A stretch of DNA of 64,000 nucleotides from Candidatus Anoxymicrobiaceae bacterium. Its GTDB lineage: Bacteria; Actinomycetota; Geothermincolia; Fen-727; Anoxymicrobiaceae. The stretch lies in contig DAIUEJ010000005.1 of assembly GCA_036845225.1 (NCBI GenBank), forward strand, positions 10,808 through 74,807, read 5' to 3'. A model generated the notes under the pieces. That model was not told the DNA's origin, searched no databases, and saw only the letters and a program-made list of their open reading frames with translations. The position numbers were made by a program, and so were the translations under genes. Shown here piece after piece: positions 5,359 through 63,713 of this stretch (positions are counted from its first letter, which is position 1; every line of letters starts with the position of its first letter).

Positions 5359-5637
5359 TTGCGCCTCGGTAATCGGCTTCAAGGGGGTATAATGATGGCG
5401 TCGGCGGCTGGAAATGGGAAATGTCAGCTGAAAGTAATAGGCCGCTTGAAACCCCCCTTGTTTTCACCAGAAGAAACATGGGAGAAGATTGGGAATGTCG
5501 ACAACGTGGTTTTCCCTACCGGAGCAGTGGTTAGAAATGGCCGTGTCTATATTTACTATGGCGCTGCCGACAAGTTGATTGCCGCGAGATCTGTTGATCT
5601 GGCAGAGCTGTTGACCAAACTCAAGAGAAGCCCGTGA
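5359..5637 (+). pseudogene. Glycoside hydrolase family 130 (GH130), C-terminal fragment only
   Basis: NVVFPTGAVVRNGRVYIYYGAADKLIAARSVDLAELL matches the conserved GH130 C-terminus and is paralogous to the full GH130 gene at 8969-9910. Only ~90 aa are present, directly after the IS remnant. Confidence 0.6.
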
Positions 5638-5641
5638 GACC

Positions 5642-7921
5642 ATGAGCCCCCAACAGCAGAATAGATACTGGATAGTCTGTGTTTCTACCTTCCCGCCGCG
5701 ACAGTGCGGCATCGCCACCTTTACCACTGACCTTACCAATGCTGTTGACAAGATGTTCGAACCGTCGATTAGGTCAAAGATTATTGCGATGAATCGTACT
5801 GAAGTAAGTCATTATTCCTACCCTGACAAAGTAATATCCCAGATATGTCAACCCCGTGAAAAAGACTACGTTGATGCTGCCGACAAGCTCAACCGGCTCG
5901 AAAAGGTAAGACTTGTCAACATCCAACATGAATTCGGGATCTTCGGAGGGGAGAACGGTTCACACATACTTCTCTTTTTAGAAAAACTTCAGAAACCGCT
6001 TGTTGCCACATTACACACAGTTCTTCCCACTCCAGACGAAGGAATGCGCAACGTTGTTCAAGCTATCATGGAGTATTCAAAAGGAATAATCGTTATGACG
6101 CACTACTCAAAGAAGATTCTCGAAAGAGATTACGGGTTGGATCCTAATCGAATTCAAGTTATTCCTCATGGGATCCACCATGTTCCCTATAGAAATACCA
6201 AGAAAGCCAAGTCTGCACTTGGCTTTTCTGGCAAATTGATCCTTTCAACCATTGGATTCCTTAGCCCCGGCAAGGGGATCGAGTACGTGATCGAGGCCTT
6301 GCCGCCGGTAGTACGGAAGTTCCCTAATGTTCGATATCTCGTCGCCGGCATTAGCCATCCTCTTGTTGTGAAACAGGAAGGCGAAAGTTACCGTAATTCT
6401 CTCATAAAGAAAGTTTACGAACTCGGTTTGAGCGAATACGTTCTTTTCGACAACACCTATTATGATCTAAATGACCTTCTAGAGTTCCTATCGGCTACCG
6501 ATATCTATATATCTCCCTCCTTAGATCCAAACCAGACCGTCTCCGGCACTTTGTCTTACGCCCTTGGCAGCGGTCGTCCGGTAATATCCACGGCTTTTGC
6601 CCAGGCCAGAGAGGACATTACTGATGATGTAGGCGTATTAGTTGACTTTAAGAACCCGCAGGCTTTCAGTGATGCCATCATTGAATTGTTGGGCAATGAT
6701 CAGCTTCGTCTGCAAATGGGCAAGAGATCTTATCTACACACAAGACACATGACCTGGCAAAATGTTGCCCTTTCCTACGTGAAATACTTCTCTCAATTTG
6801 TGCCGGAGCTAACCCTGGCACAAAGGGAACTTCCACGCGCAAAGCTTACGCATCTGGCTAAATTGACTGACAACTTCGGCATTATTCAGTTTGCCGAGTT
6901 TGCCGAGCCGGATCTTTCCTCTGGATATACCTTGGACGATAATGCCCGGGCTTTGGTTGTTGCCGCGCTCGATTATGAACAACACAGAACCTCTTCTTCA
7001 CTAAGTCTCGTCTCCATCTACCTCGACTTTCTTTATCGGGTAGCCAAACCCGATGGTTATTTCGATAACTATGTCAATCCAAACCACACTATTGACGAAC
7101 AGAGGAATAGCCGTGAATACTCAGAAGATGCCAGCGCCAGGGGACTATATGCGCTTGCCGTGGTCTCAACTACCAAACAAATCCCCGGACGCTTGAGAAA
7201 AAAGGCCCATTACTTGTTTGAGCAGAGTTTCCGGAAAGACATTGCTTTCTCCTCACCTCGTGCTATCGCTTCTTATATCAAGGCCCTCGCAAGTTTGCTT
7301 TCGAGATGGGAGGATGCAAGAACGCTTGCTGCACTAAAACACAACTGTGAAAAACTCTTGGCTCTATACGAGAAGAATCACTCACAGGACTGGGAGTGGT
7401 TCGAGCCTTATCTGACGTATTCAAATGCTCTCATGCCAGAAGCTCTTCTACACGGATGCAGAATAACCGGTGCGAGAAAATATTTCGAAGTGTCTGAAAA
7501 AACCCTCAGCTTCTTGATTAAGCATACCTTCAATGACAGCATGTACATCCCCATAGGCCAAGACGGCTGGTTTGTAAGGGGAGAGACGAGACAGTATTTT
7601 GACCAACAGCCCGAGGATGTTGCTGCTACCGTAGTAGCTCTCAACGCGATGTTTCGGGTAACGAACGAGGAGCATTACAGGGAATTGGCATACAAAGCAT
7701 TCAACTGGTTCCTGGGAGATAATATGCTTGGGCAGGTTGTCTATGATCACACCACCGGAGGATGTCATGATGGGCTTGGGAAAAAGTCCATTAACTTGAA
7801 TCAGGGAGCTGAATCTACCATTTCTTGCCTTTTGGCCCGTTTTTCATTCGACTGCTCAAAGTCAACTAAAAATTCCCTAGTTACAAACAATCATCGTCTC
7901 CCAATCACCCGGTTAGCATAA
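5642..7921 (+). CDS. Bifunctional-architecture protein: N-terminal GT4 (group 1) glycosyltransferase plus C-terminal (alpha/alpha)6 six-hairpin glycosidase-like domain
   Basis: 759 aa. N-terminal WIVCVSTFPPRQCGIATFTTDL and the Glycos_transf_1 region (GKGIEYVIEAL...). The C-terminal half has repeated helical-hairpin signatures (DNARALVVAALD, GLYALAVV, NQGAES). Confidence 0.6.
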   Translation: MSPQQQNRYWIVCVSTFPPRQCGIATFTTDLTNAVDKMFEPSIRSKIIAMNRTEVSHYSYPDKVISQICQPREKDYVDAADKLNRLEKVRLVNIQHEFGIFGGENGSHILLFLEKLQKPLVATLHTVLPTPDEGMRNVVQAIMEYSKGIIVMTHYSKKILERDYGLDPNRIQVIPHGIHHVPYRNTKKAKSALGFSGKLILSTIGFLSPGKGIEYVIEALPPVVRKFPNVRYLVAGISHPLVVKQEGESYRNSLIKKVYELGLSEYVLFDNTYYDLNDLLEFLSATDIYISPSLDPNQTVSGTLSYALGSGRPVISTAFAQAREDITDDVGVLVDFKNPQAFSDAIIELLGNDQLRLQMGKRSYLHTRHMTWQNVALSYVKYFSQFVPELTLAQRELPRAKLTHLAKLTDNFGIIQFAEFAEPDLSSGYTLDDNARALVVAALDYEQHRTSSSLSLVSIYLDFLYRVAKPDGYFDNYVNPNHTIDEQRNSREYSEDASARGLYALAVVSTTKQIPGRLRKKAHYLFEQSFRKDIAFSSPRAIASYIKALASLLSRWEDARTLAALKHNCEKLLALYEKNHSQDWEWFEPYLTYSNALMPEALLHGCRITGARKYFEVSEKTLSFLIKHTFNDSMYIPIGQDGWFVRGETRQYFDQQPEDVAATVVALNAMFRVTNEEHYRELAYKAFNWFLGDNMLGQVVYDHTTGGCHDGLGKKSINLNQGAESTISCLLARFSFDCSKSTKNSLVTNNHRLPITRLA

Positions 7922-7931
7922 AGGGTTAGCT

Positions 7932-8966
7932 ATGCGCATTGCGATGCTCTCTCCGATTGCTTGGCGCACGCCGCCGCAACATTACGGCCCGTGGGAAAGC
8001 GTGGTCTCCCTTTTGACCGAGGGGCTGGTCTCGCGCGGCTATGATGTTACCCTCTTTGCGACCGGTGATTCGCAAACAAGCGGCAAGCTCCATGCCGTTT
8101 GCGCGCGGGGCTATGAAGAAGACCTCTCCATTATGCCAAAAGTATGGGAGGGCCTGCACATTTCGGAACTCTTCGAGCATGCTGAAGATTTCGATATTAT
8201 CCATAACAATTTTGACTTTCTACCTCTGACATACACCGGCCTTACCACCACCCCGGTCGTTACTACTATTCACGGCTTTTCATCGCCCGGGATTTTGCCG
8301 GTTTACAAGAAATACAACGGCAAGGTGTTCTATGTTTCCATCAGCGATGCCGACCGGTCGCCGGATCTGGACTATATCAAAACCATCCATCACGGCATAG
8401 ATATAAAGCAGTTTGATTTTCAGCCTGAACCGGACGATTATCTGCTCTTTTTCGGGCGCATTCACCATGACAAGGGTGCCAGAGAGGCCATTGAAATTGC
8501 CAGGGCTTGCAATAAAAAGCTGATATTGGCGGGAATCATCCAGGATGAAGCCTACTATCACCAGCACATCGAACCGCACCTGGACAACGACAATGCGGTT
8601 TATGTCGGCAGCACCGGGCCGGTTCAGCGCAACCGGCTGCTTGGCAAGGCATGCGCGCTTCTGCATCCCATAAATTTCAATGAGCCTTTCGGCCTGGCCG
8701 TTATCGAGTCCATGGCCTGCGGCACTCCTGTAATCGCCTTTAACAGGGGTAGCATGCCCGAACTTATAGAAAACGGCAAGAACGGTCTTCTCGTAAAAAC
8801 AGTGGATGAGGCAATAGGGGCTGTTGCACGCATAAAAGATATTGACCGGGTATGCTGCCGCCGCCGTGTTGAACAGCATTTCACGGTCGATCGTATGGTT
8901 GAAGAATATATTCAGGTCTATGAAACGGTTCTCGAAAAAACGAAAAGAGAGGACCACCGACACTGA
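7932..8966 (+). CDS. GT4 family glycosyltransferase (group 1)
   Basis: 344 aa: MRIAMLSPIAW...EPFGLAVIESMACGTPVIAFNRGSMPELIENGKNGLLV, the canonical GT4 C-terminal domain. Confidence 0.8.
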   Translation: MRIAMLSPIAWRTPPQHYGPWESVVSLLTEGLVSRGYDVTLFATGDSQTSGKLHAVCARGYEEDLSIMPKVWEGLHISELFEHAEDFDIIHNNFDFLPLTYTGLTTTPVVTTIHGFSSPGILPVYKKYNGKVFYVSISDADRSPDLDYIKTIHHGIDIKQFDFQPEPDDYLLFFGRIHHDKGAREAIEIARACNKKLILAGIIQDEAYYHQHIEPHLDNDNAVYVGSTGPVQRNRLLGKACALLHPINFNEPFGLAVIESMACGTPVIAFNRGSMPELIENGKNGLLVKTVDEAIGAVARIKDIDRVCCRRRVEQHFTVDRMVEEYIQVYETVLEKTKREDHRH

Positions 8967-8968
8967 CT

Positions 8969-9910
8969 ATGACTACTCAATATCCCATTATAAAACGTTA
9001 TAAAATAAATCCCATTCTCACAAAAGATGATGTCCCCTACCCTGTAGCCACGGTCCACAATGCCGGCATAGTCAGGCATGGCGGCCGCTACATTATGCTG
9101 TTCAGGTCGCACCGTTACAACGGACGCTCCATCATCGGCAGGGCCGACAGCGATGATGGTTTTTCCTTCACTGTCCATCCCAAACCCTTTCTCATACCTG
9201 CAAAGGACAACATGTTTGCAGAATATGAAGAGTTCGGAGTCGAGGACCTGAGAATCTGCCCGGTAGAGGACGACTACCTGCTTACCTACAGCGCGTATTC
9301 CCGTCACGGCGTTCGGACTGCCCTTGCGCGCACCAGAGATTTTGAAAAAGTTGAACGCATTGCGCTTATAACCCAGGCCGACCTTCGCAACGTCGTCATT
9401 TTCCCTGTAAAGTTCGGTGGCAGGTATGCGCGTCTTGACCGGCCACATTCCGAAATTTCACCCTGGTCTATCTGGATTTCCTATTCCCCCGACCTGGTTC
9501 ACTGGGGTGATTCACGGGTGATTATGAAGCCGGTTCCCTATCATTGGGATGGAATGAAAATCGGTCCCGGCGCACCGCCCTTCAAGACCGACAAGGGATG
9601 GCTGCATATTTACCATGGGGTCTTTATGACCATGGCTGGGGCGGTATATCGCCTTGGTGCGGCCCTGCATGACCTTAATGATCCGGCAGAAATCATCGGG
9701 GTTTCCGATCAGTGGATACTGCAGCCCGAGGATCCCTGGGAGGTAAGCGGCTATGTGCCCAATGTTGTTTTTAGCTGCGGCGCTGTTCCTGAAGACGACG
9801 GTACGGTAAAAATATACTGGGGCGGTGCTGATACGGTTATGTGTGCCGGTACGGCAGTGATTGATGACCTTGTACAATTATGTCTTACAAATACCAGGCC
9901 GGCGCTGTAA
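8969..9910 (+). CDS. GH130 family glycoside hydrolase / beta-mannoside phosphorylase-like
   Basis: 313 aa with a GH130 five-bladed propeller profile (ATVHNAGIV, LLTYSAYS, KGWLHIYHGV, NVVFSCGAV...IYWGGADTVMCAGTA). Confidence 0.8.
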   Translation: MTTQYPIIKRYKINPILTKDDVPYPVATVHNAGIVRHGGRYIMLFRSHRYNGRSIIGRADSDDGFSFTVHPKPFLIPAKDNMFAEYEEFGVEDLRICPVEDDYLLTYSAYSRHGVRTALARTRDFEKVERIALITQADLRNVVIFPVKFGGRYARLDRPHSEISPWSIWISYSPDLVHWGDSRVIMKPVPYHWDGMKIGPGAPPFKTDKGWLHIYHGVFMTMAGAVYRLGAALHDLNDPAEIIGVSDQWILQPEDPWEVSGYVPNVVFSCGAVPEDDGTVKIYWGGADTVMCAGTAVIDDLVQLCLTNTRPAL

Positions 9911-10283
9911 AAAAGGTTAAGAGGACCTTGCCAAGAGCAACCTTCTTGGCGTACTCGCTCCGCTCCCTCTCGAGCTCGTCAGGCCCGAGGAGCGTCATGC
10001 ACCAGGCACCCTCGCGATCGGAGCCATCACAAGCAGCGTTGTCGCAACGATCGCGATCGCATAGTGTGCATTCTCACGTAACTGAACACTGATTCTCATC
10101 TTGCTTGAGCACTTCCGGAATTAGAGGATTCGAACCCTCTCCTGTCGTTTTACCCCGATCAATCACTTCGAGGCCAAGACCCTTGTTGCATTTCGATCTC
10201 ATGCTGAAAGAGCCCAGCGGTAAGGCATAACGCTGGACTAGATTGCGCATCCAGTCTTGAAAGTGAATATCGACTGGGGCTCC

Positions 10284-36398: not shown

Positions 36399-36414
36399 AT
36401 GCCTGCCCGACTTG

Positions 36415-36438
36415 AGAAAAAGGACCTGACCCCGAAAA
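36415..36438. repeat. REP-like unit (gaaaaaggacctgaccccgaaaag) between the hdrBC-like start and glnA terminator
   Basis: Inverted 18/18 match to 61798-61815. Confidence 0.5.
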
Positions 36439-36446
36439 GTTGAGTC

Positions 36447-54669: not shown

Positions 54670-55608
54670 TCAGTGATGCTCGGCGACCGGCTCGACCTTT
54701 ATCTCGGGGAAAGCCTTCGCGAAGCTCTCGGGCTCCGCCAGCCCGGGCCCGGAGTTCATTACCGCCGACACCGAACAGGCGAGCCCGATGTGGAACACGC
54801 GCTCGAGAGGAAGGTTCTGGACAATGCCCATGACGAGCCCGGCGACCATGGAGTCCCCGGCGCCGACGGTGTCCGCGCTTATCACCGGCACGGTCCCCTT
54901 GAGGGCCACGTCGCGCGTCACCAGCAGGGCCCCTTTCTTGCCCATGGACACCACCACGATCTCGACTCCCTTCTCGTTCAGCGTCCGCGCGTGTGACACT
55001 ATGTCGTCCTCGGAGGCGAGCTCGACCCCGACCATCTCGCCGAACTCGGTGATGTTGGGCTTGATCAGGTATGGCCCCGCCTCGATCGCGGCGACCAGGG
55101 GCCCACCCTCCGAGTCGACGATCACCTTCGAGCCGCGCGCCTTGCCTTCCACGGTTATCGAGTAGTAGATATCGTCCTGCACTCCGGGCGGGAGTGAGCC
55201 TGACAGCACCAGCACCTCAGGCGCCTGCGCGATCTGGAACACCAGGTTGCTGATCCTCTCTGTCTCGGTCTTCTCGACGGGAGGCCCGGCCGCGCGTATC
55301 ATGAGCTCCTTGCCGTCACGCTGCCCGATGATGATGACGTTGGTCCGCGTCTCGTTCTTGATGCGCACGATCTGCAGGATGAGCCCTTCCGCCTGCAGGA
55401 GGTCGAGAACCTCGTCTCCGACGTGCCCGCCTGCCACGCTCATCGTGACGGAATCCGTGCCCATGGCCCGCAAGGCCCTCGACACGTTGATGCCTTTGCC
55501 CCCTGGGCTCTTCAGGACCTGGACAGCCTTCACCGGCTCGCCGAACTCGAACTTGTCGAGCACGTAAGTTATGTCGAGTGTGGGGTTGAGCGTCACAGTG
55601 TAGATCAT
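54670..55608 (-). CDS. PfkB-family sugar kinase (1-phosphofructokinase/tagatose-6-P kinase-like)
   Basis: MIYTVTLNPTLDITY...SPGGKGINVS...DTVGAGDSMVAG. Confidence 0.8.
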   Translation of the reverse strand: MIYTVTLNPTLDITYVLDKFEFGEPVKAVQVLKSPGGKGINVSRALRAMGTDSVTMSVAGGHVGDEVLDLLQAEGLILQIVRIKNETRTNVIIIGQRDGKELMIRAAGPPVEKTETERISNLVFQIAQAPEVLVLSGSLPPGVQDDIYYSITVEGKARGSKVIVDSEGGPLVAAIEAGPYLIKPNITEFGEMVGVELASEDDIVSHARTLNEKGVEIVVVSMGKKGALLVTRDVALKGTVPVISADTVGAGDSMVAGLVMGIVQNLPLERVFHIGLACSVSAVMNSGPGLAEPESFAKAFPEIKVEPVAEHH

Positions 55609-55826: not shown

Positions 55827-56489
55827 ATGCATAACACAACGTGGGAAATCACAATACGTATCCTGCTGTCGCTCGTGCTCGGCGGCCTCGTGGGCATGGA
55901 GCGAGAGCTGACAGACCACCCCGCGGGCATCCGCACGCACATCCTCGTCACGGTCGGCGCGTGCGCCTTCACCACCATGTCTCTCTTCGGGTTTCCGGGC
56001 TTCCTGGGCGGGGACCGTGTCGCCGCGGCTATCGTCACCGGCATAGGCTTCATAGGTGGCGGCGCCATCCTGAAGGCAAAAGACGGCTGGGTGACCGGGC
56101 TCACTACCGCGGCAAGCCTCTGGAGCGTCGCCGCTGTCGGCATGCTCGTCGGGACTGGTTTCTATGCGGTCGGAGCCATCGTGACCGGGATCGACCTCGT
56201 GGTGCTCGAGTTCATCGACTGGGTCGTCGATAAGCTGGCGCCGAAATACAAGAGCCGGAAGCTGCCGGTGGAAGTCGCCGGCGCGCATTCAGCAGACAGC
56301 CTCAACTCGGTGCTCGACGTCCTGCGCAGCGGCGGGTGCTCCCCCGAGCTCGTCCGGTACAACCGCCACGAGGACGGCACTAGATTCGACATGTCCCTGG
56401 TCGCGAAGATCGCCAGTGACACGGACTTGCAGAAACTCACGGAAGACATCTACCGGGTCACTGGCGTGAGCGACGTGCTCTGGGGATGA
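55827..56489 (+). CDS. MgtC/SapB family membrane protein
   Basis: ILLSLVLGGLVGMERE...; MgtC N-terminal TM domain plus C-terminal ACT-like domain. Confidence 0.8.
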   Translation: MHNTTWEITIRILLSLVLGGLVGMERELTDHPAGIRTHILVTVGACAFTTMSLFGFPGFLGGDRVAAAIVTGIGFIGGGAILKAKDGWVTGLTTAASLWSVAAVGMLVGTGFYAVGAIVTGIDLVVLEFIDWVVDKLAPKYKSRKLPVEVAGAHSADSLNSVLDVLRSGGCSPELVRYNRHEDGTRFDMSLVAKIASDTDLQKLTEDIYRVTGVSDVLWG

Positions 56490-56528: not shown

Positions 56529-57428
56529 TCACCGTGGCGGCCGGTCGCCAGGTGCCAGGCTTTCCTCATAGGCGGGATCCGTCCAGCAGAGAGGCCCGAG
56601 AGCTTCGGACAGGGGGTCGGAGTCCGTGCGGCTGAAGCCGAGGTGGAGGTGGCGGCGCCAGCCTTCCGAGTGGTTGAACCGCCCGGAAGCGCGGCCGACC
56701 TCGCTGCTCATGAGTTCCATGCCCTCCAGGTAGTCGAGGTCCAGGCTCTCGCGTAGCCACTCCAGTTGGCTGTGATGCATCTCCAGCAGGCGGCGCTTCT
56801 CCCCCATCACCTCCGCGGTATTGACATACTGCCCTGCCGCGACCCGCCTCCGCAGCCCGTCGAGCAGGCCGTACGGAAGCGCATGGTAGATCGTCACCTC
56901 TCCGTCCCAGGGAGGCATATCAGGCACGGTGCGGTAATCCTGGAAACCCCGCACAAACGCTGCCGCCACGACGAGCCGGCACGAGTTCTCGTGGTCAGGG
57001 TGATAGTCGCCGGGGGAATGGACGAGGATGATGCGCGGCCTCACGGAGCGGATCACTGCTGCGGCGCGCGCGACCATGTCCGGGCCGCAGGATATGCCCA
57101 TGTCGGGCGCGACCGGCCCGTGGAACTCCGCGCCCGCGGCATCGGCGGAGGCACGCGCTTCGGCGAGCCGGATCTTCGCGGTGGCCTCCCTGCTTTTGTC
57201 GACAGACCCGAGAGAGCCGTCCGACACGCTCCACATGTGGATGCGCGCCCCAGCGTTCCGCAGCATGAGCAGGGTGCCGGCCATCATGAACTCGATGTCG
57301 TCCGGGTGCGCGCCGGCCGCGAGGGCGACGAGCGCTTCGTGGTCAATCTCTGGCACCTTTGTCTCCCCTTTCCGGGACGACCAGTCAGAAGATATGCCAA
57401 GAAAAGCACTGATGGCCTGGAGGCGCAA
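56529..57428 (-). CDS. PIG-L/LmbE family N-acetylglucosaminyl deacetylase
   Basis: AHPDDIEF...HSPGDYHPDHE zinc-binding motifs; N-terminal ~35 aa of the ORF are uncertain. Confidence 0.7.
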   Translation of the reverse strand: MRLQAISAFLGISSDWSSRKGETKVPEIDHEALVALAAGAHPDDIEFMMAGTLLMLRNAGARIHMWSVSDGSLGSVDKSREATAKIRLAEARASADAAGAEFHGPVAPDMGISCGPDMVARAAAVIRSVRPRIILVHSPGDYHPDHENSCRLVVAAAFVRGFQDYRTVPDMPPWDGEVTIYHALPYGLLDGLRRRVAAGQYVNTAEVMGEKRRLLEMHHSQLEWLRESLDLDYLEGMELMSSEVGRASGRFNHSEGWRRHLHLGFSRTDSDPLSEALGPLCWTDPAYEESLAPGDRPPR

Positions 57429-57487: not shown

Positions 57488-57829
57488 GTGATGGGAGTTA
57501 TCTTTACGCGGATGAAGCAAGGGCCGGGTGCAGCCGTGCACTTCGTTTCCGACCGGATGAAGAAAGGCGAAGACATGGAACCGGCAAAGCTCGAACCGGG
57601 CACGGGGGCACTGCTGGAGGTCAAGGGCAAGAAGCTCGCCATATACAAGGACGAAAAAGGCGAGCTCCACGTGATGTCGCCGGTCTGTCAGCACCTGCGC
57701 TGCATCGTGGGGTGGAACGCCGAGGCGAAGACGTGGGACTGCCCGTGTCACGGCTCGAGGTATGACGCCACGGGCAAGGTCCTGAACGGCCCGACCAAGC
57801 ACGACCTGCTGCCCGAGACCCTCGACTGA
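57488..57829 (+). CDS. Rieske [2Fe-2S] domain protein
   Basis: CQH...CPCHGS Rieske ligand boxes. Confidence 0.75.
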   Translation: MMGVIFTRMKQGPGAAVHFVSDRMKKGEDMEPAKLEPGTGALLEVKGKKLAIYKDEKGELHVMSPVCQHLRCIVGWNAEAKTWDCPCHGSRYDATGKVLNGPTKHDLLPETLD

Positions 57830-57858: not shown

Positions 57859-58797
57859 TCAGACTGCATCGAGGCCTTCCATGGCGGCACGGCACGCCTC
57901 GATCTCATCGCGGCTCATCCACTCATTCTTGTCACGCTGCGTTGCAAGGGGGCTCGAGCGACCGAGCTTGCGGTCCTTGTCGAGCCACAGAGGGTTGTAT
58001 TGCAGGAGGGCGACCCTCTTCGCGCCGCTGTCTCTCAGGAATCCCGCGATCGCCTTCAGGTTCTCCTCCGTCGCGGTTATCCCTGGAATGAGCGGGACAC
58101 GGGGCAGCAGCTCGGTGCCGCGCTCGGCGCAACTCTGGAGAAGGGCCTTGAAGTTCTCGAGGATGAGGCTGTTCGACACGCCGCACTGCTCGCGGTGCAG
58201 CGCTTCGTCGTGGATCTTGATGTCAAAGTAGACCGCGTCGGCGTGCGGGAGCACGAGCCGCTCGAACCCTTCGAGCGCGAAGTACCCGCAGGTCTCGACA
58301 ATTGTATGCACGCCCTTCTCCTTCAACCTCGCCAGCAGTCGCGAGCAGTACTCCATGAAAAGAGTGGGCTCGCCGCCCGAAAGGGTCACCCCGCCCCCCG
58401 ACGTCTTGAAGAACGGCAGGTCTTTCTCGATCTCGAGGGCCACTTCCTCGACGGTCATGTGCCGGCCGACCAGCGCAAGCGCTCTGGAGGGACAGGCTTC
58501 GACGCAGTCGAGGCACATGTCACAGCGCTCGCGGTCGATGAAGCCCGGCAGGTCCCTGGACAGCGCACCGAGGCCGCACGCCTCGATGCACGCGTCGCAC
58601 GCCACGCACTCATTCTCGTCGAACGATATCTCGGCGCCGGCGCGCTTGCTCTCGGGGTTGTGGCACCAGGAACAGTCGAGCGGGCAGCCCTTGAAGAACA
58701 CCACCGTGCGGATGCCCGGCCCGTCGTCGAGGGAGTTGCCTTTGATCTCCAGTATCAGAGGCTCTCTGCCGGGCCTGTCGTCGTGCAAGAGCCCCAC
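57859..58797 (-). CDS. Glycyl-radical enzyme activating enzyme (radical SAM, with extra ferredoxin-like Cys clusters)
   Basis: GCPLDCSWCHNPE radical-SAM cluster; CVACDACIEAC and CDMCLDCVEACP auxiliary clusters. Confidence 0.85.
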   Translation of the reverse strand: MGLLHDDRPGREPLILEIKGNSLDDGPGIRTVVFFKGCPLDCSWCHNPESKRAGAEISFDENECVACDACIEACGLGALSRDLPGFIDRERCDMCLDCVEACPSRALALVGRHMTVEEVALEIEKDLPFFKTSGGGVTLSGGEPTLFMEYCSRLLARLKEKGVHTIVETCGYFALEGFERLVLPHADAVYFDIKIHDEALHREQCGVSNSLILENFKALLQSCAERGTELLPRVPLIPGITATEENLKAIAGFLRDSGAKRVALLQYNPLWLDKDRKLGRSSPLATQRDKNEWMSRDEIEACRAAMEGLDAV

Positions 58798-61770
58798 CTA
58801 GATCCCATACTCTGCGCGCTCGATCAGCTCGATCTGCATGTCCCTGTTAAGGGTCACGAAGTAAGCGTTGTAGCCGGAGATGCGGACGAGGAGGTTGCGA
58901 TAGTCCTCCGGGTGCGCCATGGCGTCGCGCAGCATATCGGTGGTGACCACGTTCATCTGCATCTGCATCCCACCGAGGTCGAAGTAAGTCTTCACGTAGG
59001 AGAACATGTTCTCCACGATGCGCTCGTGGCTGTCGGATGCTCCGGGGACCACCTTCACGTTGAAGGCGATGTTGTTGTTCATGTTTCGCGCGTCGAGGCT
59101 GGCGACGTCTCGGATGTTGTCGAGCAGGTTTGGCGAGGCGTTGGGCTCGGGGGTGAGCCCCGGGGTGAACGCCTTTCCGGCGAGCCTGCCCGATGGGAGC
59201 GCCCCGGTGAGCGTCCCGAAGGCGACGTGGTTGGACATCGACCAGAAGCCGGCGGTGTACGGGCCGCCCCTGAAGTTCCTGTGCGCGCCGTAGGTGTCGT
59301 GGGCGAACTTCGCCACCCGGTCCGCCATCGCCACGGCCTCAGCGCTGCCCGAGCCGAAAAGCGGGACCCGCTTCGTGACCATGGCATGGAGCGCCGCGTC
59401 GCTCGCGAAGTTGGTGTCGACGGCCCGCTTCAAGTCGGTGAACTTCACCTTCTTGTCGTCGTACACAAGGGTCTTGATGACCATCAGCGAGTCCGTGATG
59501 TCCGCGAGCCCTATGCAGGCCGCGCCAGACGAGTTGTAGCGCGCGCCTCCCACGGTCGCGTCCTTGCCTTCAGAAATGCAGTCATCCTGGAGCGACGAGA
59601 GCAGAGGGGTCGGCCGCAGCAGGCTGTGCGCCTCCCCGAGCATGTTGTTGTACTCCACCGAGTTGTCGATCAGGAACTTGAACTGGGTGGTGAACGCCGC
59701 GAAGAAGTCCTCGAAGGTCTCGAAGTCGCCGGCTTCGATGCTGCCGGTCTTCGGGCCGACGTCCCATTCCATGAGCGGATGGCGCCCGTTGTTCATGGCC
59801 ATCTCGAAGGCGGCGACCATGTTCATCATCATGCAGTTGGTGTGGCCCATGTGTTTGCCGGAGAGGGTCGGCTCGACGCAGCCGGTTGCCGCCCAGTCGC
59901 GCAGGTCCTCGGGTGCGTAGCCGAACTCTTCGAGCGACTTCATCACGGCGAGGTCGTTGTGCAGCGACGGTGTCGCCGCGGTGATCAGGTTCACCTCGCA
60001 TAGACGTTTAAGGTAAGCGTCCGAATTCTTCTCCGGGTTGAACCTCGCGTTCACGTTCGGGTCCCGTATGCCCAGTATCTCCGTCACCTTCAGGAAGACG
60101 TACGTCATGTCGTTGACCGCGTCCTCCCCCTCCGGCGTGACACCGCCAAGCGTTATCGCCTGGTCGGAGGAAGAGCCGCCGAACAAATAGTTTCCTATGT
60201 CCGGCACAAGGGGAAGGTGGTCCGTGCACCGCATGTAGAAGCAACCGACGAGTTCGACCGCCTTCTTGATGTATTCCTTTTTCTCCTCAGGCGTTCCCAG
60301 CTTCGCCATATCGGCCTCGAAGAACGGCTGCAGCCATTGGTCCATCCGCCCGATGGACAGCCCGGCGTTGGTGCTCTCCATATGCAGGCCGACCCATCCG
60401 ATCCAGATCGCGTTGAGGGCTTCATCCAGCGTCTCCGCGGGGTGCTCGGGGACTCTGCGGCATGTCTCCGCCAGCCTCTCGAGCTCAGCCTTTCGAACGG
60501 GGTCGGTCTCGGCAGCCGCGTCTTTCTCCGCCTGAGCCGAAAGGTTCCGAGCGTAGGCGGTGAGGCCTTCGAGGCAGAGCACCATGGCCTCGAGGGTATC
60601 CTTCTTCTCCTGGCTCGCGGAGGCATCCGCTGCCAGCTCCTGCTCTATCTCGCGGATGATCCCGCCGGTGCCCAGCCGCAGCAGCTTCGGGAAGTCGAGT
60701 ATGGTGTGCGACAGCGACGCCGTCTTCCACATGAAGTACACAGCGAAACGCTCGTCCATCTTCTGGGAGAGCGGCTGTGAGTACTTGTCGCGCACCCACT
60801 CGCGCATGTTGCGCTTCGACCAGTAGGGAAACACCTTGTGGTGGAAGGCCTCCCGCGTCTCCTCGCTTATCTCGTAGGGGTTCAGGGGGCGGCCGGGCAG
60901 CGAGCCGAGCTCTCCCCATATCATGGTGCCGTGGGTGTCGGGGTAGACCACGACCCCGATCTCTTTGGTGGTGGTGGTGCCGGCGATCAGGTCGTCCTCG
61001 CGGATTATCGGCTCGCGGTTCTCCATCAGGTATTTGTATGCCTGTGCCTGCCTGAGCGCCGGCACCCACTCCTCGCCCTGGACGTCGGTCTCGAAACCGT
61101 TCTCGAGGAACCAGTCGGTCAGGAGAGACGAGCGCTCGTGGCACACCTCGGGAGTGCGGGTGAAGTGGACGTCGAGAAAACGCTCGAGCCTGGGGAAGTC
61201 GTCGAGCGAGTATTCCGCGAGGTAGGGGTCGTCCAGGTGCTTGACCCCGGAGTCCACCCTCTCACCTTTCATCCTCACCTTATGCCGCTCCGACATCTCG
61301 CGCGACAGAGCCGGGTCGGACGGTCCGCCCATGCTGGCGCGCTCTTTCGCGTCGGCGGCTTTCGCCTTCTCCGTCAACTTCTTCTGGGTCTTGGAGAGCA
61401 CCAGGGAAAGGTAGTAGTTGAAGAGGTTCATGTACGAGAGGTTGCCCTCGAGCCTGAACTCGCTCTTCAGAAGGAGGTTCAGCATCTCGCTGGGCGGCAG
61501 ACTCAGCATCCGCTTGATGACGCTGTCGTCCCTGTAGACCATCGTGACGTCAGCGTCCGCGGGGACCGAGGAGGCCACGCGCGCCTTGCCGTCCCGGAAA
61601 GTGATGGACTGCTCGACGGTGTTCGCCTCGGTCCTGAAGCCGACCGAGAGATCGAACCAGGAGCCGTTGGTCCGCATCTCCTCTTTCAGGGAGGGCCTGT
61701 GGTTGAAGCTCCCCGCCATCATGCGCAGGAGCGCGTTCGCGAGAAGGTTCGTCGATGTGTGACCGTTCAC
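58798..61770 (-). CDS. Glycyl radical enzyme, eliminase/dehydratase type (GCVEP Cys loop), 990 aa, with N-terminal ~190-aa SCP2-like extension
   Basis: C-terminal glycyl radical motif RISGYNAYFVTL; Cys loop ATGCVEPTLSGK. N-terminus has ADVTMVYRDDSVIKRMLSLPPSEMLNLLLKSEFRLEGNLSYMNLF, which resembles the SCP2 sterol-carrier fold signature. Confidence 0.8.
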   Translation of the reverse strand: MNGHTSTNLLANALLRMMAGSFNHRPSLKEEMRTNGSWFDLSVGFRTEANTVEQSITFRDGKARVASSVPADADVTMVYRDDSVIKRMLSLPPSEMLNLLLKSEFRLEGNLSYMNLFNYYLSLVLSKTQKKLTEKAKAADAKERASMGGPSDPALSREMSERHKVRMKGERVDSGVKHLDDPYLAEYSLDDFPRLERFLDVHFTRTPEVCHERSSLLTDWFLENGFETDVQGEEWVPALRQAQAYKYLMENREPIIREDDLIAGTTTTKEIGVVVYPDTHGTMIWGELGSLPGRPLNPYEISEETREAFHHKVFPYWSKRNMREWVRDKYSQPLSQKMDERFAVYFMWKTASLSHTILDFPKLLRLGTGGIIREIEQELAADASASQEKKDTLEAMVLCLEGLTAYARNLSAQAEKDAAAETDPVRKAELERLAETCRRVPEHPAETLDEALNAIWIGWVGLHMESTNAGLSIGRMDQWLQPFFEADMAKLGTPEEKKEYIKKAVELVGCFYMRCTDHLPLVPDIGNYLFGGSSSDQAITLGGVTPEGEDAVNDMTYVFLKVTEILGIRDPNVNARFNPEKNSDAYLKRLCEVNLITAATPSLHNDLAVMKSLEEFGYAPEDLRDWAATGCVEPTLSGKHMGHTNCMMMNMVAAFEMAMNNGRHPLMEWDVGPKTGSIEAGDFETFEDFFAAFTTQFKFLIDNSVEYNNMLGEAHSLLRPTPLLSSLQDDCISEGKDATVGGARYNSSGAACIGLADITDSLMVIKTLVYDDKKVKFTDLKRAVDTNFASDAALHAMVTKRVPLFGSGSAEAVAMADRVAKFAHDTYGAHRNFRGGPYTAGFWSMSNHVAFGTLTGALPSGRLAGKAFTPGLTPEPNASPNLLDNIRDVASLDARNMNNNIAFNVKVVPGASDSHERIVENMFSYVKTYFDLGGMQMQMNVVTTDMLRDAMAHPEDYRNLLVRISGYNAYFVTLNRDMQIELIERAEYGI

Positions 61771-61794
61771 GTCGGCCTCCTTGACTTAACACTA

Positions 61795-61856
61795 GGGGTC
61801 AGGTCCTTTTTCTTAAGTCCCGGGACTAAACTTTTTGGGGTCAGGCCCCTTTTTGT
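61795..61856. repeat. Cluster of REP-like units upstream of the GRE gene: ggggtcaggtcc-ttttt / palindrome agtcccgggact / ggggtcaggcccc-ttttt
   Basis: Shares an 18-nt identity (gaaaaaggacctgacccc, inverted) with 36415-36438 and the GGGGTCAGG core with the elements at 379-477 and 4307-4360. Confidence 0.55.
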
Positions 61857-61930
61857 TTAGTCGCAGGGATAATCATAGTACGGTTGGGCGCGAGGTGATA
61901 ATGACGGATGACGTATTCCCGTCGAGCGCC

Positions 61931-62602
61931 TTATTGAGCCCGGCCGACCGGACAGGCCACGGCGCACATCGCGCAGGCGTGCTTGCGGCCGAGGACAGGG
62001 ATGTGTGAGCGCCTCCACCGGTCACACTCGAACGCATCGATAAGCTCGTCGCGGCCGCAGCCGGGGCTCCAGGTGCCACTTTTCAGCGCCCCGGAAGGGC
62101 AGGCATCCACGCACAGGCGGCACCTGCCGCAGCGAGAACCGGTGACAGGCTTGCCGGCCGTCATTCGCTCGGCGGCGAGCACCGTCGCCATCTCGAGGCG
62201 CGGACCGAACGCGGGCGAGACCAGCATGCCGTTCCTCCCGACCCATCCCAGCCCGGCGAGCGTGGCGGCAGTCTTCTGCTGGAATCACGCCGATAGCGAG
62301 CACTCGTCCTGGCCCGAGATGCGCACGTTCGGGATGCCCAGGCTGTCCAGTAACGAGCATAACTCCGTGACTGCGCCCTTCAGCCCGCGGTCGGCTTCGA
62401 GTTCCGCGGAGTGGTACGACTCCTCGTCGTAGGACTCGAGCGTCGGGGCCTCCGCTCCCGGGAACAACGGGGAGACCAGCACCAGCGCCGAGCCGTAGCC
62501 CCAGGGCCCTGACTCGCCGAGTACGGACAGGTCCGCGACGCCCCAGGCCGCCAGGCCCAGGCCGTCGAGCAACGTCTTTATGGCTTCGTAGTTCTTGCTC
62601 AT
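61931..62602 (-). pseudogene. QueG-like epoxyqueuosine reductase-family Fe-S protein (short), interrupted by an in-frame TGA at 62285-62287
   Basis: Upstream ORF ends ...QDECSLSA-TGA, then the same frame continues FQQKTAATLAGLGWVGRNGMLV... (QueG AGLGWIGK motif), followed by CGRCRLCVDACP and CAMCAVACP clusters. (62686-62227)=459 is a multiple of 3. Confidence 0.5.
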
Positions 62603-62735
62603 CGTCCCATCATGATACCGGCGATTTCGTCCCATTGCACCGTTTGCGGTCGATGCCGACGGCCTCCTCCTGAACGACCGCGTCATCCCGGCGTTTGTTA
62701 TAGACTCTAACCGTGGCTGAAGGCGGAGCGGGAGG

Positions 62736-63713
62736 ATGGGAATGGACCTCGATATCGACGAGGAGCTTCTCGGTCAGTTCGAGCGCCAGCTCGACCCGAG
62801 GCACCCCGAGGCGGGCGAGATCCCGGCAAAAGTCCTGGGATACGGCGAGATAAGCACCGTGTTCGAGATCGGCTCGGGCAGCCAGGCGGACGTCGCCTAC
62901 AAGCGCATGCCCATCTTCGAGACCGAGGCCGAGCTCGACAAGTACCGCTGGATCTTCCGCGAGTACAACCAGTTGCTGTCATCGCAGGTCGGGCTGCTGC
63001 TGCCGCCCTTCGGGCACGCCACGGTGACGGGCTCCGATTCCAAGCCCGTGATGTTCCTCGCACAGAAGAAACTCGACCCCGCTTCGATCGGCAACAAGGC
63101 GATTCAGGTCCTCTCGGAGGAAGATACCGTGCGCCTGGTGGTCCTGGTCCTGCGGGAACTCGCGAAGCTCTGGGACTTCAACGCGCGGCAGGGCGAGGTG
63201 GAGCTGGGCATCGACGGCCAGATATCCAACTGGTCGGTCGAGGGCTTCGACCCCGCGAACCCCGCCGTCAGCGACGAGACGCGCCTCTACTACATCGACA
63301 CCAGCACCCCGTTCATAAGGCTCGAGGGAGTGGAGCAGCTCGACCCGGAGCTCTTCCTGAGGAGCGCGCCGTCATTCCTGGTGTGGCTTCTGCGATTGAT
63401 GTTCCTCGAGGACGTGATGACCCGCTACTACGACTTCCACCTGGTCGCCGTGGACATCATCGCGAACTTCTACAAGGAGCAACTGCCGCAGCGCATACCC
63501 GCGCTGGTGAAGGCGGCCAACGAGTTCTTCGAGGGCGAGGCCGCGGCGCTTGACGTTGCGCCTCTCACGGAGAAGGAGATCAAGTCTTATTACCGCGAGG
63601 ACGCCATGATCTGGAGGCTGTACCTCGCGATGAGGAGGAGTGACCGTTTCCTGCGGACCAGGATAACCAGGAAAGGCTACCCCTACATCCTGCCGGGAAA
63701 GATCAAGAGATAG
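62736..63713 (+). CDS. Hypothetical protein (325 aa)
   Basis: Long ORF with host-like codon usage; no recognisable motif. Confidence 0.45.
   Translation: MGMDLDIDEELLGQFERQLDPRHPEAGEIPAKVLGYGEISTVFEIGSGSQADVAYKRMPIFETEAELDKYRWIFREYNQLLSSQVGLLLPPFGHATVTGSDSKPVMFLAQKKLDPASIGNKAIQVLSEEDTVRLVVLVLRELAKLWDFNARQGEVELGIDGQISNWSVEGFDPANPAVSDETRLYYIDTSTPFIRLEGVEQLDPELFLRSAPSFLVWLLRLMFLEDVMTRYYDFHLVAVDIIANFYKEQLPQRIPALVKAANEFFEGEAAALDVAPLTEKEIKSYYREDAMIWRLYLAMRRSDRFLRTRITRKGYPYILPGKIKR

Follow-up and report, generated by a model that had tools for sequence, protein, structure and literature searches.

An SCP2-fold domain fused to a glycyl-radical enzyme in Anoxymicrobiaceae and other anaerobes: a candidate radical eliminase for amphiphilic substrates

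We analyzed a 64,000-nucleotide stretch (the window) from the genome of a Candidatus Anoxymicrobiaceae bacterium (Actinomycetota, Geothermincolia; GenBank assembly GCA_036845225.1, contig DAIUEJ010000005.1, positions 10,808 to 74,807 of the forward strand). It encodes a 990 amino acid (aa) glycyl-radical enzyme (GRE) with an N-terminal domain that has the fold of the sterol carrier protein SCP2, next to a radical-SAM activating enzyme (activase). Our analyses directly support the GRE assignment, the activase, the SCP2 fold, the conserved Cys/Glu/His triad, the distribution of the family and its recurrent gene partners. With moderate confidence, we propose that the enzyme carries out a radical 1,2-elimination on an amphiphilic substrate whose hydrophobic tail is delivered by the SCP2 domain, giving an aldehyde or ketone product. 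Positions below are those of the window unless a locus label is given.

The GRE gene lies on the minus strand at 58798..61770 and was called as one open reading frame (ORF) with a GTG start. A ribosome-binding site, AGGAGG, can be read from the sequence 5 nt upstream of the start (61776..61781, minus). Five parts follow each other on the minus strand: the SCP2-fold domain (residues ~5-125; 61396..61758); a charged helical linker with column conservation of 0.47-0.53 and helices at residues 126-147 and 153-164 (residues 126-172; 61255..61395); a connector with near-invariant columns, DPGVK.L.DPYLS.Y.L.DFPRL, that joins the SCP2 arm to the barrel (residues 173-198; 61177..61254); a ten-stranded catalytic barrel like that of pyruvate formate-lyase (PFL) (residues 204-852; 59215..61161; Pfam PF02901, E 8e-174); and a glycyl-radical domain (residues 869-972; 58855..59166; Pfam PF01228, E 1.5e-23). 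The initial annotation of this DNA, made from the letters alone, had named a GCVEP Cys loop and a canonical C-terminal glycyl-radical motif, and both are present. The loop, G630-C631-V632-E633-P634, contains the CXE motif (59869..59883, minus) and is invariant in an alignment of 120 homologues. The glycyl motif reads R963-I-S-G966-Y967, which fits the superfamily pattern R-V/I-x-G-[FWY], with the Gly966 codon at 58873-58875 (minus), and RISGYNAY is invariant in the same homologues.

The dedicated activase that the initial annotation described is a 312 aa ORF at 57859..58797 (minus) whose start codon abuts the GRE stop. It scores 288 bits on TIGR02494 (cut-off 174) and has a Radical_SAM domain, a CxxxCxxC motif and two ferredoxin-type cluster motifs by Pfam. 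As judged from sequence, the locus appears to be a two-gene module of GRE and activase. The length of 990 aa holds; the idea that this exceeds all characterized GREs does not, as Klebsiella pneumoniae CutC chains in the PDB have 1150 aa.

The N-terminal ~190 aa had been likened to SCP2. A Pfam scan of residues 1-200 found no match even at E<=10, with the SCP2 profile PF02036 included. A profile of 37 N-terminal sequences, compared with PDB sequences, put three SCP2 proteins at the top, in register, with an E of only ~0.35. From the same alignment, AlphaFold2 predicted residues 10-130 with confidence (predicted local distance difference test, pLDDT, 80-93) and with the element order helix-helix-four strands-two helices-strand-helix. 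The top 45 Foldseek matches of this model in the PDB are all SCP2-fold proteins, at a probability of 1.00 and a target template-modelling (TM) score of 0.6-0.7. They include Archaeoglobus fulgidus AF1534, UbiJ-SCP2, the C-terminal domains of the alkylsulfatases SdsA1, PisA1 and YjcS, human SCP2 and the SCP2L domain of MFE-2. The alkylsulfatase C-terminal domains are alkyl-binding. Two independent structure searches recovered the SCP2 fold for this region, at 10-18% identity to the fold matches. Based on the models, the SCP2 assignment is valid at the level of the fold and not at that of the sequence family. The earlier proposal is supported, with a correction to the extent of the domain: modeling confirmed the fold for residues ~5-125, the sequence profile gave no match, and the linker (126-172) and the connector (173-198) lie outside the fold.

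None of the 120 listed homologues has a gap in the N-terminal ~190 aa, which rules out a start-codon artefact; column conservation is 0.5-0.7 in this region versus 0.8-0.9 in the core. The pLDDT of the connector (173-198) rises from ~50 in the model of the isolated domain to 83-93 in the full-length model, which suggests that the connector packs on the barrel. When the N-terminal region alone was the query, a word-indexed homologue search returned two fragments only. An exhaustive hidden Markov model (HMM) search with the N-terminal profile against 1.84 billion representatives found 316 proteins at E<=1e-3. All are fragments or ~1000 aa proteins, so at the sequence level this SCP2 variant exists solely as a GRE fusion.

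We placed the catalytic core by HMM scores, identities and fold ranks. The best matches in a search of PDB sequences (350-380 bits) are A. fulgidus PFL2, propanediol dehydratase (PD), glycerol dehydratase (GD), CutC and HypD. MasD (213 bits), BssA (179 bits) and HPAD (135 bits) are more distant, and decarboxylases score 135-258 bits. The core is 30.4% identical to GD over 738 aligned positions. A full-length AlphaFold2 model (predicted TM score, pTM, 0.87) matches PD, GD, PFL2, CutC and HypD in Foldseek at a target TM of 0.90-0.92 and 27-29% identity. The query TM against solved GREs is only 0.73, because none of them covers the SCP2 arm. In the structural ranking, diol and glycerol dehydratases are nearest, ahead of X-succinate synthases and decarboxylases. 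The protein missed the cut-off of the TIGR01774 (PFL2-3) subfamily (506.5 versus 678.2) and those of the NCBIfam equivalogs HypD (420 versus 1100), CutC (385 versus 1050), HpsG (385 versus 1000) and HpfG (377 versus 1000). The catalytic domain, at ~27-30% identity to GD, PD, CutC, HypD and PFL2 and below every equivalog cut-off of NCBIfam and that of PFL2-3, falls outside the characterized clades. The suggestion of a new GRE subfamily is supported; the checks chosen beforehand for their power to refute it were run, and none did.

We mapped active-site residues from HMMER alignments (full-length number equals query number plus 190). GD C433 and E435 correspond to C631 and E633, GD H164 (CutC D216) to H355 (codon at 60706..60708, minus; His in 120/120 homologues) and GD G763 to G966. 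GD H281 and S282 correspond to A469 and G470, GD Y339 (CutC F395) to D536, GD D447 to N645 and GD Y640 to W843; CutC T502 is T644 here, and CutC Y506 (HypD Y450) is M648. All positions mapped onto GD, CutC or HypD are invariant or nearly so in the 120 homologues, with C631, E633, H355, D536, T644, N645, M648 and W843 invariant, and the stretch H640-x-G-H643-T-N-C-M-M-M-N-M is likewise invariant or nearly so. A comparison of substrate residues with known GREs had been proposed with the subfamily, and in the alignment only the Cys, Glu and His of the GD substrate contacts are conserved; H281, S282, Y339, D447 and Y640 are all replaced. The predicted pocket combines the invariant polar residues H355, D536, Q537, H640, H643, T644 and N645 with a Met/Trp/Phe-rich wall (M647-M651, F842, W843). 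As to the Arg/Gln/Arg sulfonate anchor of the C-S lyases IslA, IseG and HpsG, the segment 345-355 has no Arg and the HpsG and HpfG scores are far below cut-off, with the third anchor position not aligned residue by residue. From these alignments, the enzyme appears to keep the dehydratase-type Cys/Glu/His machinery in an otherwise new pocket that is part polar and part Met/Trp/Phe-rich. Beside the active site there are two co-varying subtypes, C646-M647 in 89/120 homologues (as in the window) and F646-Q647 in 28/120.

All 1,2-eliminases retain the CXE motif, and in GD, Glu435 deprotonates the C1 hydroxyl and His164 protonates the leaving C2 hydroxyl (PMC13450708). In the mechanism that we propose, the activase would install a glycyl radical on Gly966. 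The radical would move to Cys631, which would abstract a hydrogen from a hydroxyl-bearing carbon. Glu633 would take the hydroxyl proton, by analogy with GD, and His355 would be the general acid that protonates the leaving group on the neighboring carbon, which may be a hydroxyl, alkoxy or amino group. This 1,2-elimination, with loss of water, alcohol or amine, would leave an aldehyde or ketone. The SCP2 domain on its helical arm most likely picks up a water-insoluble amphiphile and feeds it to the barrel, and the substrate would have a polar alcohol head and a long alkyl or isoprenoid tail. This chemistry would suit long-chain 1,2-diols, alkyl- or acyl-glycerols, ether core lipids and sphingoid bases as candidate substrates. 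The carbonyl product may, in other phyla, be passed to an adjacent short-chain dehydrogenase/reductase (SDR), aldehyde:ferredoxin oxidoreductase (AOR) or iron-containing alcohol dehydrogenase (Fe-ADH), and the operon would be controlled by a TetR-type repressor. Three elements of this model are inferred: that the reaction is an elimination, that the substrate is lipophilic and that SCP2 acts as a carrier.

The catalytic residues also bear on whether the enzyme could perform other chemistry on a lipophilic substrate, either an isomerization with ring or ether opening, as in YbiW, PflD and HplG, or the Kolbe-type decarboxylation of a lipophilic acid. PflD, YbiW and HplG are in the same similarity range as the eliminases, the CXE motif is common to GRE isomerases and HPAD, and YbiW and PflD cleave an ether C-O bond (PMC13450708). 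We consider such chemistry unlikely, as the His equivalent to the general acid of GD is invariant, diol and glycerol dehydratases are nearest in both structure and sequence, decarboxylases are clearly more distant (135-258 bits versus 350-380), and the carbonyl and alcohol oxidoreductases adjacent to the gene in other genomes fit an aldehyde or ketone product.

YbiW and PflD, which act on 1,5-anhydrohexitol-6-phosphate, share the CXE motif and are 23-27% identical to the SCP2-GRE; their substrates are sugar phosphates and they have no SCP2 domain. In these enzymes, the ether C-O bond is broken after hydrogen abstraction next to a hydroxyl (PMC13450708), which is the chemistry needed if the SCP2-GRE were a radical lyase that acts on ether lipids of glycerol or on related compounds (alkylglycerols, archaeol-type core lipids, lyso-plasmalogens). 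In that case, the hydrogen taken by Cys631 would come from the glycerol-backbone carbon with the free hydroxyl, and Glu633 and His355 would drive out the alkoxy group next to it, which would leave as a fatty or isoprenoid alcohol; the SCP2 domain would hold the chains. We regard this specific assignment as improbable.

In a protein search, the family comprised at least 120 clusters with lengths of 973-1025 aa, matched with full coverage at 65-100% identity. When one genome was scanned for each GTDB species, 168 genomes encoded a relative, and the best 80 of these 168 relatives have 58-82% identity over essentially the whole length. Nearly all are metagenome-assembled genomes (MAGs) from anoxic habitats. 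By record title, they belong to Geothermincolia/Anoxymicrobiaceae and other Actinomycetota, Desulfobacterales, Desulfatibacillaceae, Syntrophales/Smithella, Spirochaetota/Leptospirales, Chloroflexota, SAR324 and Myxococcota; a Promethearchaeota (Asgard) MAG is among the matches of the protein search. Based on these sequences, both the SCP2 and the GRE parts appear to be under strong purifying selection across phyla. Down to 35% identity, the SCP2 domain is kept gap-free; this holds in at least six phyla, and sister subfamilies with other active sites have it too. Such retention through deep divergence speaks for a function that is linked to the enzyme.

Among the representatives found with the N-terminal profile are more divergent full-length SCP2-GREs, with core identities of 39-60% and other pocket residues, which indicates that the fusion is old and diversified. 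P0143, P0211 and P0212 (1016-1041 aa) keep the Cys and Gly, lack His355 (SMSEVPP or SLNPGSP) and differ in pocket residues. The SCP2-GRE architecture probably spans several specificities. In P0164 (1007 aa) and P0182 (984 aa), neither the catalytic Cys (GAAAP and GDGGP for GCVEP) nor the glycyl motif (RVGACCA and RSAGAGA for RISGYNA) is left. These two proteins look like catalytically dead SCP2-GRE paralogues, possibly structural or regulatory partners. Intact SCP2-GREs are duplicated in tandem in two of the related loci (L005 3908-9899 and L015 1865-7978; L-numbers such as L005 and L084 label the SCP2-GRE loci that we compared).

For genomic context, we called and clustered ORFs in 80 loci plus the window and searched selected neighbors by tblastn against 89 loci. 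The activase adjoins the GRE in 50 of ~80 loci and is the sole general neighbor; contigs often end short. A TetR-family regulator lies directly upstream in 31/89 loci, and TetR-type regulators are typical of the sensing of small hydrophobic ligands. Oxidoreductases and a ligase recur at lower frequency: a classical SDR in 12/89 loci, an extended SDR in ~6/89 (nearest named models HpnA, OleD and SdmB, far below cut-off), an AMP-dependent ligase in 5/89, an AOR in 4/89 and an Fe-ADH in 3/89. The operon is laid out most clearly in a Desulfatibacillum MAG, in the order TetR-activase-GRE-SDR (L084 3356-8847). In L086 (4410-6822 and 13741-15381), an AOR and a ferredoxin are divergent from the operon and an AMP-dependent ligase is downstream.

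Some loci contain lipid-related genes. L085 (2425-7199) has two FadL/TodX outer-membrane channels and a 666 aa protein on the same strand, just upstream of TetR-GRE-activase. L084 has a phospholipase A1 (PLA1), a PAP2 and an alpha/beta-hydrolase in its neighborhood, and alpha/beta-hydrolases also occur in Asgard and Chloroflexi loci. Immediately downstream of the GRE in L087/L088 (11145-15437), in one lineage only, is a 1430 aa BcrAD_BadFG-DUF2229-HGD-D protein whose size and domain make-up match the single-gene plasmalogen synthase PlsA (PMC12838417). We rejected the PlsA-like protein, FadL/TodX, PLA1 and PAP2 as conserved partners, as each occurs in a single locus or lineage.

A second, unrelated GRE of 838 aa (GCLEN Cys loop, ~27% identity, no SCP2) is found near or beside the SCP2-GRE in L012 (5912-8428), L042 (4685-7201), L079 (10533-13049) and L083 (14007-18448), from MAGs of Chloroflexota and Thermodesulfobacteriota. 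An activase of its own and a PNPOx-like protein accompany this GRE in L012, L042 and L083, the loci from Chloroflexota.

Context and distribution also bear on a hydrocarbon-activating role, in which the enzyme would add fumarate as the X-succinate synthases do and SCP2 would deliver an alkane. There has been speculation that PFL-like GREs in alkane degraders add fumarate in this way. The family is found in MAGs of alkane-degrader lineages (Smithella, Desulfatibacillaceae and a MAG labelled Desulfosudis oleivorans), and an SCP2 domain would suit an alkane. We find this role very improbable, given that the family is also common in Spirochaetota, Geothermincolia and Chloroflexota with no hydrocarbon link, that the eliminase Glu and His are retained, and that MasD and BssA are farther away than the eliminases (213 and 179 bits, 20-22% identity, target TM 0.77-0.81). 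X-succinate synthases have small beta/gamma subunits; no recurrent small ORFs of this type were found next to the GRE in the clustered loci, nor was closeness to BssA or MasD.

Several observations weigh against a 1,2-elimination on an amphiphile. The CXE motif is also found in the isomerases YbiW, PflD and HplG, and HPAD has Cys503/Glu505 (PMC13450708), so that the chemistry cannot be read from this motif alone. The full-length model has a pLDDT <50 in active-site and Gly loops (344-353, 523-536, 645-647, 849-877 and 962-969), with the rest of the barrel confident; this is probably because the alignment holds close homologues only, and it ruled out modeling of the pocket. Apart from the activase, none of the recurrent partners, TetR and SDR included, is present in the window, and across the compared loci the regulator and an oxidoreductase are the only pathway context that is conserved. 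The lipid-related neighbors are single occurrences and serve as hints only. The known 1,2-eliminase substrates are all small polar C2-C5 molecules (PMC13450708).

This last point also argues for a small polar metabolite as the substrate, with an SCP2 domain that has no substrate role and acts in oligomerization, membrane tethering or regulation. The invariant polar residues of the pocket agree with such a substrate, the window gene sits among unrelated housekeeping-type genes, and no lipid-catabolic pathway consistently adjoins the GRE. We nevertheless judge it fairly unlikely, since the SCP2 domain persists without gaps to the depth described above, including in subfamilies with other active sites, and the Met/Trp/Phe-rich wall replaces the polar GD contacts. 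SCP2 domains that are fused to enzymes or serve them handle lipophilic substrates, as in SCPx thiolase, MFE-2, the alkylsulfatase SdsA1 and UbiJ, which are all among the fold matches of the N-terminal model. The FadL/TodX channels in one operon also speak for a lipophilic substrate.

Compared with known systems, the SCP2-GRE appears from its sequence to work most like the C-O-cleaving eliminases GD and PD, yet it belongs to no named family. GD (1R8W) and PD (5I2G/9RCO), both B12-independent, resemble it in barrel fold, CXE motif, His164 equivalent and C-terminal glycyl motif, and the activases share the TIGR02494 type and the two additional ferredoxin-type motifs. They differ in sequence (28-30% identity), in the 190 aa SCP2 arm that is extra here, and in context, as the SCP2-GRE has no bacterial microcompartment (BMC) or pdu/dha surroundings. 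A tblastn search with a sequence of the BMC-H shell protein PduA as the query found no match in the window or in 88 related loci, in line with the initial annotation, which had noted the absence of BMC shell genes near the GRE; no BMC Pfam families were found in the annotated neighborhoods. CutC has Asp (D216) at the leaving-group position, where His355 is found here. The best PDB sequence match is A. fulgidus PFL2 (AF1449, 2F3O; E 4e-112), which shares the active-site motifs SH, GCVE and N/D-Q after the GG loop, and which differs in having 776 aa, no SCP2 domain and ~29% identity. PFL2 is itself a GRE without an assigned function (PMC13450708), so no function can be transferred from it.

The SCP2L domains of SCPx thiolase and MFE-2, the alkylsulfatases SdsA1, PisA1 and YjcS, and UbiJ are functional analogues of the SCP2 arm, and none of them is a radical enzyme. 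In contrast to these enzyme-linked SCP2 domains, the domain here is N-terminal on a radical enzyme, a combination found in no solved structure that was matched. In the full-text literature that we searched, nothing relevant was found for a GRE or pyruvate formate-lyase together with SCP2 or sterol carrier protein, or for glycyl radical together with ether lipid, plasmalogen, Geothermincolia or lipid sequence-similarity networks. In a comprehensive GRE review of June 2026 (PMC13450708), there is no mention of SCP2, of sterol, of an N-terminal domain or of a lipid substrate. The initial annotation knew of no characterized GRE with an SCP2 fusion, and this literature contains none. A limonene-linked glycine-radical enzyme (PMC12583861) was rejected as a match, as it is a BssA-type synthase that is 61% identical to BssA. 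Within the literature searched, the SCP2-GRE family appears to be undescribed. What is new is the domain architecture and, probably, the substrate class, on a known catalytic platform.

The other genes around the GRE in the window were correctly named by the initial annotation. Downstream are a Rieske protein (57488-57829, plus) that is convergent with the activase, a PIG-L deacetylase (56529-57428, minus), MgtC (55827-56489, plus) and a PfkB kinase (54670-55608, minus). On the 5' side of the GRE are a QueG/RdhA-like Fe-S gene (61931-62686, minus) and a 325 aa DUF6206 protein (62736-63713, plus) that is divergent from the GRE region. We rejected the window neighbors (Rieske, PIG-L, MgtC, PfkB, DUF6206, an aminotransferase and an acyl-CoA dehydrogenase (ACAD)-like protein) as a pathway. 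They recur only in close Actinomycetota relatives, and because this conservation is synteny among close relatives, they say nothing on function. The Rieske protein is further weakened as a pathway partner by its opposite strand and convergent orientation. In addition to the Actinomycetota relatives, DUF6206 is found beside the GRE in L038, a Desulfosudis-labelled MAG.

The QueG/RdhA-like gene is one frame broken by a single in-frame TGA (62285-62287), ~9 codons before an AGLGW motif. There was no Rfam match to a SECIS-type element for this TGA, which could reflect a pseudogene, a sequencing error or a recoded codon. A ~38-nt hairpin element is present in three copies, at 61825-61861 (minus), 61783-61820 (minus) and 36409-36446 (plus), with the loop AAAAAGG(G/A)(G)CCTGACCCC; the number of matches expected by chance is 0.01. 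Two copies are in tandem in the 5' leader of the GRE (61783-61861). We rejected a riboswitch or regulator site, given the third copy at 36409-36446, the absence of the hairpin from 83 related loci and the lack of an Rfam match. Its absence from those loci indicates a genome-specific repeat like repetitive extragenic palindromic (REP) elements. Elsewhere in the window, a stretch at ~5600-10000 has a GC content of 0.47-0.52 versus 0.62-0.65 for the rest and carries three same-strand ORFs (5642-9910); it may be a horizontally acquired island.

The SCP2-GRE family is large and widespread, and is not peculiar to the window. Subfamilies with different pockets and apparently dead paralogues suggest a set of related enzymes and not a single one. 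The family is compact (two genes) and highly conserved with clear catalytic residues, which makes it directly testable. A lipid-carrier-bearing GRE clade, if confirmed, would extend glycyl-radical eliminase chemistry to water-insoluble substrates. This clade is found in at least 168 species of anaerobes from sediment, subsurface, peat and digesters, including an Asgard archaeon. If the enzyme does act by 1,2-elimination on amphiphiles, it would represent an unrecognized step in anoxic lipid and amphiphile turnover. Were its substrates ether lipids, it would provide the first route by which the ether bonds of membrane lipids are broken without oxygen, and would bear on the turnover in anoxic sediments of the archaeal and bacterial ether lipids that are used as biomarkers.

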